DNA of 64,000 nucleotides from Octopus vulgaris (Eukaryota). Numbering within the stretch: the first letter of the stretch is position 1; each line of letters begins with the position of its first letter. The stretch covers positions 204,972,001 through 205,036,000 of the forward strand of contig OX597815.1 of the NCBI GenBank assembly GCA_951406725.2. The letters run 5' to 3'. The notes under the pieces were generated by a model, which was given only the letters and a program-made list of their open reading frames with translations, ran no database searches and was not told the origin of the DNA. Made by a program: the position numbers and the translations under genes. This document shows positions 5,346 through 58,656 of the stretch, piece by piece.

Positions 5346-5654
5346 TGCATCCCAAGGAACATATTTTCGTTCATCGACTCAGTCAGTTACCCCCAACAGA
5401 CCAGCCCCGCAACCAACAGGCTGCAACAATCTATTTAATTGGTTCTTTATTAGAAGGAATAACCTACCGCCAATTATTTCTGGTCATATTTATTTTCAGT
5501 TTTTTTCTTCTTTTTTTTTTTAAAGTTTGGTACTTATTTTATCGATCTCTTTTGCCGAACCGCTAAAATAACTAGGACGCAAACAAACCAACATAGGTTG
5601 TCAGGTGGTGGTGAGGTTGACAAACACACATATACACTATATATATATATATAC

Positions 5655-13714: not shown

Positions 13715-14498
13715 TGGAAGGCGGCGAGCTGGCAGAAACGTTAGCACGCCGGGCGAAATGCTCAGCGGTATTTCGTCCGCCGCTACGTTCTGAGTTCAAA
13801 TTCCGCCGAGGTCGACTTTGCCTTTCATCCTTTCGGAGTCGATAAATTAAGTACCAGTTAAGCACTAGGGTCGATATAATCGACTTAATCCGTTTGTCTG
13901 TCCTTGTTTTTCCTCTCTGTGTTTAGCTCCTTGTGGGTAGTAAAGAAATAGGTATTTCGTCTGCCGCTACGTTCTGAGTTCAAATTCCGCCGAGGTCGAC
14001 TTTGCCTTTCATCCTTTCGGGGTCGATAAATTAAGTACCAGTTAAGCACTAGGGTCGATATGATCGACTTAATCCGTTTGTCTGTCCTTGTTTTTCCTCT
14101 CTGTGTTTAGCTCCTTGTGGGTAGTAAAGAAATAGGTATTTCGTCTGCCGCTACGTTCTGAGTTCAAATTCCGCCGAGGTCGACTTTGCCTTTCATCCTT
14201 TCGGGGTCGATAAATTAAGTACCAGTTAAGCACTTGGGTCGATATAATCGACTTAATCCGTTTGTCTGTCCTTGTTTTTCCTCTCTGTGTTTAGCTCCTT
14301 GTGGGTAGTAAAGAAATAGGTATTTCGTCTGCCGCTACGTTCTGAGTTCAAATTCCGCCGAGGTCGACTTTGCCTTTCATCCTTTCGGGGTCGATAAATT
14401 AAGTACCAGTTGCGTACTAGAGTCGATCTAATCGACTGACTCTCACCAAAAAAATAAAATAAAATAAAATTTCGGTCTTTGTGCCTAGAGTAGAAAAG
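13715..14498 (+). mobile_element. SINE family B with internal tandem array (3 x 184 bp plus partial unit)
   Basis: tRNA-like head GGCGGCGAGCTGGCAGAAACG, B box GAGTTCAAATTCC. Units start at 13769, 13953, 14137 and 14321. TSD AATATTTTAAGAA at 13702 and 14499. Confidence 0.9.
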
Positions 14499-31939: not shown

Positions 31940-33680
31940 CAGTAGTGGTGGTGGTGGTGGTGGTATTGGTGGTGGTGGTGGTGGTGGTGGTGGTGGTGGT
32001 GGTGGTATTGGTGGTGGTGGTGGTGGTGGTGGTGGTGGTGGTGGTGGTAGTGGTGGTGGTGGTGGTGGTATTGGTGGTGGTGGTGGTATTGGTGGTGGTG
32101 GTGGTGGTGGTGGTGGTGGTGGTGGTGGTGGTATTGGTGGTGGTGGTGGTGGTATTGGTGGTGGTGGTGGTGGTATTGGTGGTGGTGGTGGTGGTGGTGG
32201 TGGTGGTGGTGGTGGTGGTGGTGGTGGTGGTGGTGGTGGTGGTGGTGGTAGTGGTGGTGGTGGTGGTGGTGGTGGTGGTGGTAGTGGTGGTGGTGGTGGT
32301 GGTGGTGGTATTGGTGGTGGTGGTGGTGGTGGTGGTGGTGGTATTGGTGGTGGTGGTGGTGGTGGTGGTGGTGGTGGTGGTGGTGGTGGTGGTGGTGGTG
32401 GTGGTGGTGGTGGTGGTATTGGTGGTGGTGGTGGTGGTGGTAGTGGTGGTGGTGGTGGTGGTGGTGGTGGTGGTGGTGGTGGTGGTGGTGGTGGTGGTGG
32501 TGGTGGTGGTGGTGGTGGTGGTGGTGGTGGTGGTGGTGGTATTGGTGGTGGTGGTGGTAGTGGTGGTGGTGGTGGTGGTGGTGGTGGTGGTGGTGGTGGT
32601 GGTGGTGGTGGTGGTGGTGGTGGTGGTAGTGGTGGTGGTGGTGGTGGTGGTATTGGTGGTGGTGGTGGTGGTGGGTGGTGGTGGTGGTGGTAGTGGTGGT
32701 GGTGGTGGTGGTGGTAGTGGTGGTGGTGGTGGTGGTGGTGGTGGTGGTGGTGGTGGTGGTGGTGGTGGTGGTGGTGGTGGTGGTGGTGGTGGTATTGGTG
32801 GTGGTGGTGGTGGTGGTGGTGGTGGTAGTGGTGGTGCTGCTGTGGTGCTGGTGGTGCTGGTGGTGGTAATGATGATGGTGGTGGTGGTGGTGGTGGTGGT
32901 GGTGGTGGTGGTGGTGGTGGTGGTGGTGGTGGTGGTGGTGGTGGTGGTGGTGGTGGTGGTGGTGGTGGTGGTATGTGGTGGTGGTGGTGGTGGTGGTATT
33001 GGTGGTGGTGGTGGTGGTGGTGGTGGTGGTAGTGGTGGTGCTGGTGGTGGTGGTGGTGGTAATGATGATGGTGGTGGTGGTGGTGGTGGTGGTGGTGGTG
33101 GTGGTGGTGGTGGTGGTGGTGGTGGTGGTGGTAGTGGTGGTGGTGGTGGTGGTGGTGGTGGTGGTGGTGGTGGTGGTGGTGGTGGTGGTGGTGGTGGTGG
33201 TGGTGGTGGTGGTGGTGGTGGTGGTGGTGGTAGTGGTGGTGCTGGTGGTGCTGGTGGGGGTAATGATGATGGTGGTGGTGGTGGTGGTGGTGGTGGTGGT
33301 GGTGGTGGTGGTGGTGGTGGTGGTGGTGGTGGTGGTGGTGGTGGTGGTGTGGTGGTGGTGGTGGTGGTAGTGGTGGTGCTGGTGGTGGTGGTGGTAATGA
33401 TGATGATGGTGTGGTGGTGGTGGTGGTGGTTTGTGGTGGTGCTGGTGGTGCTGGTGGGGGTAATGATGATGGTGTGGTGGTGGTGGTGGTGGTGGTGGTG
33501 ATGATGGTGGTAGTGGTGTGGTGGTGGTAATCATGATGATGGTGGTGGTAGTGGTGGTGGTGGTGTTGTTGGTAGTGTTGGTGGTAGTGGTGTTAATGAT
33601 GATGGTGGTGGTGGTGGTGGTGGCGGCGGCGGCGACGGCGGTGGTGGTGGTATGGGTGTTGGTGGTGGTGGTGGTGGTCC
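31940..33680. repeat. ~1.7 kb (GGT)n trinucleotide array
   Basis: Directly visible, with recurring GTATTG/GTA variants. Confidence 0.97.
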
Positions 33681-33949: not shown

Positions 33950-35556
<1,607 letters not shown>

Positions 35557-43159: not shown

Positions 43160-43433
43160 TAAAACCAGTTGGCTTTCTGTTTCTATTCTTTCTTTGTTAC
43201 TTCCCGAAACGAGATTGAAACAAGTAGTCTGAAATGTTGCAATTTCTCTTGTATATTTACTCGTCTAGACGTATTAAGGTGTAGTTATGGACATTAACCT
43301 GCTCAGTTCTATATTTAAGAGATGAGGAATTATGCACATTATTTACATTATTTACATTCGACGGAAATTTGTCCTAAGGTAGAGGACAAATTTCTACCTT
43401 AGGAATGAGAATCCAGGCTCGAAATTTCCCCAA

Positions 43434-43479
43434 GACACCTGAAGAAGGCTGCAGGATATATCAGCCGAAACGTTGTGTT
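43434..43479 (+). ncRNA. Minimal type I hammerhead ribozyme motif (copy 1)
   Basis: GACAC CTGAAGA A GGCTG-loop-CAGCC GAA ACGT T GTGTT. Confidence 0.75.
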
Positions 43480-43569
43480 AACAACAAACAAGATGAGGAC
43501 AAATATCCGTCGAATGTAAGGACAAATTTCTACCTTAGGAATGAGAATCCAGGCTCGAAATTTTCCCAA

Positions 43570-43615
43570 GACACCTGAAGAAGGCTGGAGGGTATATCAG
43601 CCGAAACGTTGTGTT
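43570..43615 (+). ncRNA. Minimal type I hammerhead ribozyme motif (copy 2)
   Basis: Same stems and core as copy 1; differences fall in loop 2. Confidence 0.75.
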
Positions 43616-43881
43616 AACAACAAACAAGATGAGGACAAATATCCGTCGAATGTAAATAACGTAACTAATTAACCTGCTCGTCTAAGTATAAATGCTTTAC
43701 AATAATCGTGTGTAGTGTCATTTATTTGAATTATTTTCAAATCAATATTGTATTTTGGGAATATAATTGGACCCTAGTATTTAACTGGTACTTATTTAAC
43801 TGAGCCTAGAAGAATGAAAAGCAAAGTTGATCTCGGCAGGATTTCAAATTAGAACGTAACTAATTAGAATACAGCAATATT

Positions 43882-55822: not shown

Positions 55823-56013
55823 CCTAAAGCTCCACGAGGCTCCGGCAGGGGGTGACGATCCCTGCTGTACTCTTTCGCCACAACTTTCTCTCATTCTTTC
55901 CTCTGTTGGCCTGCTCGATCAGCCAGCGAGGTGGCGTCATTTGAAGGCTAAAACAATGCAAAGCGCATTGTGACCAGCGATGTGTAACAACATCTGATAG
56001 CCTGGTCGGTCAC
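55823..56013 (+). mobile_element. SINE C body with tail type 3
   Basis: CCTAAAGCTCCACGAGGCTCCGGCAGGGGGT shared with family C, then an unrelated 3' sequence. Confidence 0.65.
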
Positions 56014-56035
56014 AGTCACGGTCATATATATATAT

Positions 56036-56565
56036 AATTTACAAGATAAGGGCAGAAGAAAAATTCTAATACCAAATATTTTATCCTATATCAATTATAA
56101 ATAGACTAGTGTTCACTTCCGGATTCTATCACTCTGTGAAAGTTTCTAGTTCGAATCACACGTGTCTCGAGGTGCGCCGAAGATTTTTCTATTTTGGATA
56201 TATTTGGGGTACTTAAGTCTGCTCGGGACTTAGTGCTTGCTTTTTCCATGGGTATGAGTAAGTATTTAATTTATATCTCGCGTATTTGCCGCTGAAGAGG
56301 GGAAAATTTCTTATGAATTAGCCCCGAAATTGGACCAATACGGTAATAACGAATTTTTTAGAGATTTCTATCGGTTTGTTTCGAGACGCATAAATTATAA
56401 TGGTTATCGACAATTTTTTGTTTCGGCACATTTGGCATTAGAATTTTTCTTCTGCCCTTATCTTGTAAATTATGTATAAATTTTACCTTTAAAGGCATTT
56501 TTTGATATGCTGGCCATTGATAAAATGTTTTTCCCGAAAAAAATCTTATCCTATATTAATTATAA
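56036..56565 (+). mobile_element. Non-coding PLE/retrozyme-like insertion with intact hammerhead
   Basis: TSD AGTCACGGTC(AT)n. Inverted 44-bp arm. 20-bp terminal direct repeat with period 465 bp. Confidence 0.8.
56286..56346 (+). ncRNA. Type I hammerhead ribozyme, predicted cleavage after 56340
   Basis: Stem I TTGCCG/CGGTAA, core CTGAAGA, stem II GGGG/CCCC, GAA, stem III ATTGG-A-CCAAT, cleavage triplet AUA. Confidence 0.85.
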
Positions 56566-57116
56566 GTCACGGTCATATATATATATATATGTAAGGAAAA
56601 TAAGACAAGATAGAAAATGCTAAAATAATTTTATCATGGAATACATTTTGTAACGGTTACTACCGGTTTCAGACTTTTCGACTTTTCGCCACTAATGAAC
56701 AACCAAACTTCAGATATCGTATGTATTGATATCTTTTATCTTTTTATCATTTACTTGTTTCATTCATTAGACTGCGGCCATGCTGGGGCACCACCTTTAA
56801 AGGTTTTAAGTCGAACGAATCGACACCAGTACATTTTTAAGCCTGATATTAATTCTAGCGGTATATATACATGTGTGTGTGTGCGTATGTGTGTGTGCGT
56901 GCGTGTATGTGTGTGTGTATGTGTTTTTGTGTGTGTGTAAGTGCATTTTTCCGTTTAAATTCTCCGTTTTCTCGTTTTTTACTGATTTTTTTCTTGTTCT
57001 TATATTATGTTTGTAGCAAGCAATTAAAAATTGCAGAGTCATTAAGAAAGTTATAGATTGGTTTGACGAAAAATATTACTAAGGATATAAATAAACATTA
57101 ACTGCTTCGGGAAATG

Positions 57117-58360: not shown

Positions 58361-58656
58361 TTCCAGGGAAGGGTGAGATCTTCAAATTCCAAAGAATCCC
58401 TCTCAAAACATGCCTATGATGCTCCCTGTAGTACTGCTCGTGATTTCTTGCCCATGATCAAAGATACACATATCGTCAGCCACTAAGGGACTTGCTCAAC
58501 TGGTTATGGTCAAGCAACTAACAAGCAAAACTGTGGTATTGAGCAGTATGTTTACTGTAGTCCATCTTTTACACCAAGACAAAATATGTACATTTATACA
58601 TACGTATGTACATTTGTATATATAAGTATTCATACATTTATGTATATATGTATGTA

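Follow-up and report, generated by a model that had tools for sequence, protein, structure and literature searches.

A 64,000-nt stretch of Octopus vulgaris DNA (GCA_951406725.2, contig OX597815.1, positions 204,972,001-205,036,000 of the forward strand; hereafter the window) contains a copy of a non-coding repeat, likely a non-autonomous retroelement of the non-LTR retrozyme type that is copied by the reverse transcriptase (RT) and GIY-YIG endonuclease of a Penelope-like element (PLE); we put the probability of this reading at about 0.8. The full unit spans 465 nt on the forward strand (56101-56565; 34% GC), and its longest ATG-started frame, searched with the unit tripled, reached 47 amino acids. 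A previous sequence-only reading of this DNA had suggested a non-autonomous, PLE-mobilised or retrozyme-like family, and this suggestion was borne out by hundreds of dispersed copies, self-wrapping junctions, (TA)n targets, inverted 5' pieces and a one-sided tail, by hammerhead stems that covary between sister families and by copies free of any attached ORF. Thus, the 465-nt repeat is a new family (family A) of a class already described, that of non-LTR retrozymes or non-autonomous PLEs. The element itself is not surprising; its value lies in a clean data set, in which a short unit with hundreds of copies obeys a strict two-site end rule, leaves target duplications that can be read and occurs as natural dimers suited to in vitro tests. 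We found no description of family A in the literature on hammerheads, retrozymes, Penelope and octopus transposable elements, with subscription papers mostly outside the search. The octopus repeat annotation (PMC13282606) lists 31 recently active Penelope-like families; the terms hammerhead, ribozyme and retrozyme have 0 mentions in its main text, and its library may hold the unit under another label.

Organization of the insertion in the window

As previously proposed, the insertion is bounded by a duplicated target, AGTCACGGTC(AT)n, whose left copy (56014-56036, forward strand) matches the right copy (56565-56587, forward strand) in 23/23 nt, the first base of the right copy being shared with the unit end. 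The left copy also forms the end of a flanking repeat that is older and very common (~55830-56023) and that is very deep in public contigs. Among the 15 joints listed in the search for an empty insertion site, none skipped just the window element.

Between the 23-nt duplications, the insertion amounts to 1.06 units. It opens with an inverted, 5'-truncated piece (56034-56077, reverse strand), which runs into the (AT)n and copies 56430-56473 (unit ~330-373) with one mismatch; this inverted copy had been recognized earlier, and it starts two bases to the left of the position first claimed for it (56036). The 3' end of a 5'-truncated upstream unit follows (56074-56100, forward strand; unit 439-465), overlapping the inverted piece by 4 nt and forming a head-to-tail junction with the full unit. 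The 20-nt direct repeat of the sequence-only reading was recovered at 56081-56100 and 56546-56565, at a spacing of 465, and extends to 27 nt at 89%; it is not a terminal repeat and corresponds to the 3' end of this upstream unit. At 11/465 sites the window unit departs from the majority sequence of the family, and the copy has one hammerhead only.

We infer a main and a second, internal priming site. The internal one, represented by the outer end of the inverted piece (56034-56077), would be the AT-rich site at 56470-56481 (forward strand; unit 370-381), at which insertions end their second arm; the main priming site would be TTATA at the end of the ~84-nt tail (56482-56565, forward strand), which is present at one end only and carries a motif common to the sister families A2 and B described below. 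A GTAAGT motif near 56257, resembling a splice donor, was discarded as a feature because the motif itself failed to align between the A and B families. Elsewhere in the window, we observed a 184-nt tandem array (13767-14437; 3.6 copies at 97%) made up of a common interspersed repeat, and two very long microsatellites, (GTG) x 579 at 31945-33678 and (TGTA) x 286 at 34417-35555.

Repeat families and the ends of their copies

The searched genome comprised 2.8 Gb in 227 contigs, ~30 of them large, and loci were picked by similarity or by exact patterns, so that they form a non-random sample. A similarity search with the element returned 3169 first-look candidates, of which 40 were scored, and the best 30 listed were 89-100% identical and distributed over many contigs. 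Genome-wide, the hammerhead 3' 20-mer had 413 exact matches, and the search for tandem copies recovered 92 exact matches to the head-to-tail junction, with no locus having more than two; the reversed control was 0 in both cases. In the exact junction search, no long source arrays of the unit were seen genome-wide. Two same-strand hammerheads were present in 8/142 family-A loci, and the longest insertions held about 2.4-2.6 units (L025, L017). These results indicated that the 465-nt unit is a high-copy, dispersed and mostly sub-unit-length family.

Two sister families were found: A2, which is ~77% identical to A, and B, which is weakly alignable to A and has a period of 497-500 nt. All three are self-wrapping units of 465-500 nt (470-500 nt for A2 and B), and they have the layout and a ~85-nt tail in common; the tail pattern common to A and B had 874 exact matches, with a control of 0. 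A terminal hairpin is present in all three families and is not significant in A or A2 (predicted at ~56519-56550, with z +0.80 in the window copy and z -2.21 in family B). At C8:106.81-106.96 Mb (L178, L179) and at C1:218.94-218.96 Mb (L186, L187), nearby copies have identical breakpoints, which suggests segmental duplication and not separate insertions. At L018 (1265-1330), a type I hammerhead whose stem III is a 10-nt palindrome lies in a different repeat, which ends in (TA)n and directly adjoins a family-A copy.

Two opposed arms were present in 93/142 distinct family-A loci. The arms ended at unit positions 381 and 464 in 69 of the 93, which thereby repeat the inverted-piece geometry of the window copy, whereas 0 loci ended 464+464 and 0 ended 381+381; of the remaining 24, 22 paired 381 or 464 with another end and two had neither. 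An end rule of the 381/464 type was followed in 27/34 family-B loci, and the end pairs of A2 were less clean (6/12 internal plus end, 2 end plus end). Among 104 3' ends, 57 lay at unit 460-465, 33 at 370-391 and 0 at 236-246, the interval of the predicted cut site; likewise, a truncation pile-up at the cut site was rejected, with only 4/104 truncation points within 5 nt of it (236-246). The 5' truncation points were scattered, the inner boundaries of the arms varied, and 5'-truncated partial tandems occurred in the family.

A TA run was found at an end in 129/142 loci, compared with 12.6% of random flank positions. Duplications of at least 10 nt, as selected by a script filter, occurred in 8 loci, roughly half of which were low-complexity cases, and mismatched controls gave 0-2; the window duplication was the clearest non-microsatellite case among the 142 loci, and L260 showed one of 15 nt. 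For PLEs, the reported signature combines partial tandems and a bias to (TA)n with an inverted copy that is 5'-truncated and a tail of 30-40 bp at one end only (PMC8557442). The combination of 381/464 ends, inverted copy and one-sided tail is the Penelope 'inverted copy plus tail' pattern.

A SINE-like repeat mobilised by a LINE, with twin priming of the L1 type behind its inverted arm, is a very improbable source of these structures, as is a DNA element bearing inverted ends. Twin priming also yields 5' inversions and target duplications, and the copies have rough inverted ends. However, single-RNA twin priming gives non-overlapping arms, whereas here the inverted and direct arms have sequence in common and begin at two sites that are fixed and distinct. 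The asymmetric ends (381 vs 464), the variable inner boundaries, the head-to-tail tandems and the absence of a poly(A) tail from the family copies also argue against both variants.

The hammerhead fold and its conservation

The unit carries a type I hammerhead fold with a near-palindromic stem III (56286-56346, forward strand). Stem I pairs 56286-56291 with 56341-56346 (6 bp, one G.U); the core is formed by CUGAAGA (56292-56298) and GAAA (56326-56329); stem II is GGGG/CCCC (56299-56302 with 56322-56325); stem III is AUUGG-A-CCAAU (56329-56339); and an AUA triplet ends at 56340, directly after which the cut is predicted. The sequence-only reading had described this hammerhead as fully paired with a canonical core. 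The canonical core and stems I and II were retained in our analysis, but stem III was not fully paired because a 1-nt loop cannot close: in the monomer it comprised 4 bp and a GAC loop with a pair probability of 0.12-0.13, stems I and II having 0.69-0.96 and 0.99-1.0, respectively. When two copies were co-folded, a double hammerhead formed at -38.9 versus 2 x -14.2 kcal/mol. The weakness of stem III in the monomer suggests that cleavage would probably need a dimer, which is the dimer-dependent design of metazoan type I hammerheads (PMC4209133). In Xenopus, in vitro cleavage occurred in only 1/9 predicted retrozyme dimers (bioRxiv 10.64898/2026.07.22.740005); therefore, a good fold is no guarantee of activity.

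When the window was scanned with a strict descriptor, 56286-56346 was the sole high-quality match, accompanied by one weaker match with a 1-bp stem II at 58479; a looser descriptor returned 56286-56346 and matches at 43439 and 43575, and 1 match in 20 windows of the shuffled control. Rfam did not recover the fold, giving 0 matches at gathering score and 7 weak matches at E<=10, none of them a hammerhead. Plain folding of 56270-56360 yielded z -0.67, and the best structure mis-paired the core. The positions 43439 and 43575 are the cores of a separate repeat, a 136-nt tandem dimer (43383-43655) with a minimal, PLE-type type I hammerhead and an inverted piece at ~43338-43375, which is unrelated to the 465-nt unit. 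The dimer is a member of a short repeat family present in many copies (3741 candidates, 40 scored), which have inverted arms and are often preceded by (AAT)n; in 30 loci, no PLE ORF lay beside them except for an opposite-strand fragment ~700 nt away (L309).

The core motif was intact in 45/52 family-A hammerhead segments. For comparison across the three families, we used 79 of 106 segments, one per locus and located by homology, not structure; second copies, one duplicate and several gapped copies were left out. Stem covariation was present among the copies: 93.5% of the stem cells were paired, versus 27-45% in slid controls, and 8/15 pairs were changed on both sides, a count that was reached in 87/500 shuffles and reflects covariation across three related lineages only. 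These comparisons suggest that the ribozyme was preserved by compensatory change across the three sister lineages, and the unit carries a conserved hammerhead fold that is predicted to cut its own RNA.

Template, proposed mobilising element and relation to known systems

A linear monomer cut by two hammerheads would begin at unit 241. This monomer was rejected as the template, since 16/29 tail-selected loci (hand count) run through the cut site and pass unit 241, truncations near the cut amounted to the 4/104 noted above, and the longest insertions extend to the 2.4-2.6 units of L025 and L017. Because copies read through unit 241, the template was not the cut linear monomer; it must have been an uncut multimer or a circle, without an end at the ribozyme cut site. 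Tandem pieces of one insertion shared non-majority variants at ~3x background (65 vs 21.7), and inverted pieces of one insertion shared 79 vs 26.3 in the background. At a T/C site at unit 457, agreement within the locus reached 27/28 (L030, where the site is altered, was left out) and 22/23, the window copy being the discordant exception in the 27/28 count. Thus, each insertion derived from one template lineage.

We proposed that a staggered cut in or beside (TA)n would leave two DNA 3' ends, one of which would prime cDNA at the AU-rich unit end (464) and the other at a second AU-rich position (381), which lies 84 nt further upstream. Both cDNAs would stop at variable points, and their head-to-head joining would produce the inverted arm as well as the tail at one end only. 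The rare dimer loci would supply the template: after their transcription, two hammerheads would pair via stem III and cut out a monomer, which would be ligated into a circle, and RT running round it would produce 1.06 units here and up to ~2.6 elsewhere. This course, from dimer transcription through monomer excision to a circle and RT running round, is the most likely one, and we hold it at about even odds. A circle route for PLE tandems has been proposed previously (PMC4209133).

The same non-autonomous, PLE-mobilised element may instead have been copied from uncut linear multimers or by RT template jumping, with a hammerhead that trims the precursor or is rarely active and with no circle; to this we give somewhat under an even chance. 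Tandems, shared variants and cut-site read-through are equally explained in this way, and tandems alone are no proof of a circle because autonomous PLEs also make partial tandems. Moreover, tandem and inverted structures of this kind are also made by PLEs that have no canonical hammerhead (PMC8557442), stem III is weak in the monomer, and the circular fold of the unit is unremarkable (63% paired, z -1.26, 6/60 shuffles as good). However, a linear daughter cannot exceed its source, and with no long arrays such multimers need regeneration; indeed, the few double-hammerhead loci and the absence of long arrays favour some multimer regeneration, for which PLE template jumping is equally suited. The apparent maintenance of the ribozyme by compensatory change in three sister lineages speaks against copying without a circle, and circles have been demonstrated for comparable repeats of coral, mussel and axolotl (PMC7229834). 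Junction reads are uninformative on circles because a religated circle is the same in sequence as a genomic tandem; the public contigs cover the flanking repeats as well as the unit, and their source runs are only presumed to be RNA, so that they count neither for nor against expression.

More tentatively, and at odds well short of even, the three ORF-less hammerhead units may form a long-lived clade that spread as circular RNAs, which the PLE RT copied using two internal priming sites of fixed position, each serving one end of the target. If true, the strict 381/464 asymmetry and the visible target duplications would record directly in the genome how the PLE inverted arm and one-sided tail arise, and the circle model of PLE retrotransposition could be tested on the 465-nt unit as a minimal substrate.

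Intact PLE ORFs of 781 amino acids with RT and GIY-YIG domains are present in the genome. They belong to a young autonomous PLE family on many contigs, the copies of which are 97-99% identical (L051 2245-4587, L052-L055); at L054, an open frame of 479 amino acids lies upstream of the 781-aa ORF. The linker of these proteins, CGRPNCGIC, fits the CX2-5CxxC motif given for Neptune and Nematis (PMC8557442), and the elements have a two-end layout with a ~35-nt tail (by eye, 3 loci) and, at their very end, only a short ATCCTA..TTATAA likeness to the unit, which their terminal repeat otherwise does not match. A minimal hammerhead-like motif with a U3-A8 core variant was seen by eye in the terminal repeats of the 781-aa PLEs and in other PLE remnants (L051 ~5565-5605; L043, L047, L052; L007 ~1335-1375); it was not flagged by the strict descriptors, and this variant of the minimal hammerhead is described in PMC4209133.

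The linkage to PLE ORFs raised by the sequence-only reading was not found: no contiguous RT/GIY-YIG ORF accompanied the family copies in the loci examined (142 A, 30 A2 and 70 distinct B), and across the same loci the copies were not simply truncated ends of an autonomous PLE. PLE fragments near nine copies (L005, L007, L025, L052, L188, L223, L230, L255, L259) were separate elements, delimited by TA runs or by different repeats, and the fragment at L256 lay on the opposite strand. Comparison of the unit with PLE terminal repeats in 32 PLE loci gave no match except a separate insertion seen as L042/L052, the PLE sample being small and biased (150/6136 GIY-YIG candidates scored, 32 loci fetched). 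A partner PLE was not found in the GIY-YIG scan, 12 extended PLE loci, PLE 3' ends, or the tail-pattern and hammerhead-anchored loci.

These searches bear on whether an unsampled autonomous PLE gave rise to the copies, either as its terminal repeats (pLTRs) or through deletion, which we consider improbable. The small fraction of candidates scored and the PLE fragments near some copies leave room for such an element, and Xenopus retrozymes match PLE pLTRs (bioRxiv 10.64898/2026.07.22.740005). However, each long copy wraps onto the unit's own start, as do the units of all three sister families; the neighbouring PLE fragments examined are separate; and no common foreign extension was seen at the loose ends of genomic contigs on the unit among the 24 matches listed.

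The element works like a non-autonomous PLE and falls within the sequence-level definition of a non-LTR retrozyme, two classes that have been proposed to be one and the same (Li et al., bioRxiv 10.64898/2026.07.22.740005). Like the metazoan non-LTR retrozymes (Cervera and de la Pena 2020, PMC7229834, in whose main text 'octopus' has 0 occurrences), the unit is non-coding and low in GC, has a canonical type I hammerhead with a palindromic stem III, occurs in head-to-tail copies and co-occurs with PLEs, by which mobilisation is proposed in both cases. At least two complete hammerheads head to tail, the retrozyme criterion, were found for the family in the 8/142 loci and not in the window copy. 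The unit, at 465 nt, is longer than the ~170-400 nt given for retrozymes in PMC7229834 and lies inside the range of 51-972 bp in bioRxiv 10.64898/2026.07.22.740005. Unlike metazoan non-LTR retrozymes, it is found mostly as dispersed sub-unit copies without long arrays. The circles described for retrozymes are 'highly self-paired' (PMC7229834), whereas the circular fold of the unit did not exceed shuffled sequences in stability. The inverted-arm and tail rule is absent from the retrozyme descriptions in the available text of PMC7229834 and bioRxiv 10.64898/2026.07.22.740005.

The unit resembles non-autonomous PLEs, for example MRC1 in the Chlamys clade (Craig et al. 2021, PMC8557442), in being short and non-coding, with pLTR-like partial tandems, head-to-tail multimers and microsatellite insertions. 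MRC1-type PLEs resemble their autonomous partner at the 3' end, whereas the unit had no such match in the 32 PLE loci, and they mostly have no canonical hammerheads as described in PMC8557442, whereas the hammerhead of the unit is canonical (6-bp helix I, 4-bp helix II) and not of the minimal PLE form. With PLEs in general, the unit has in common a type I hammerhead, 5' truncation, an inverted upstream copy, a one-sided tail and a (TA)n preference, but unlike autonomous PLEs it lacks an ORF for RT or endonuclease. PMC8557442 leaves open the function of PLE hammerheads and the way in which PLEs come to insert as tandem and inverted copies. The most useful details in this comparison are the two-site end rule of the unit and its tail of ~84 nt, compared with the 30-40 bp stated for PLEs (PMC8557442).
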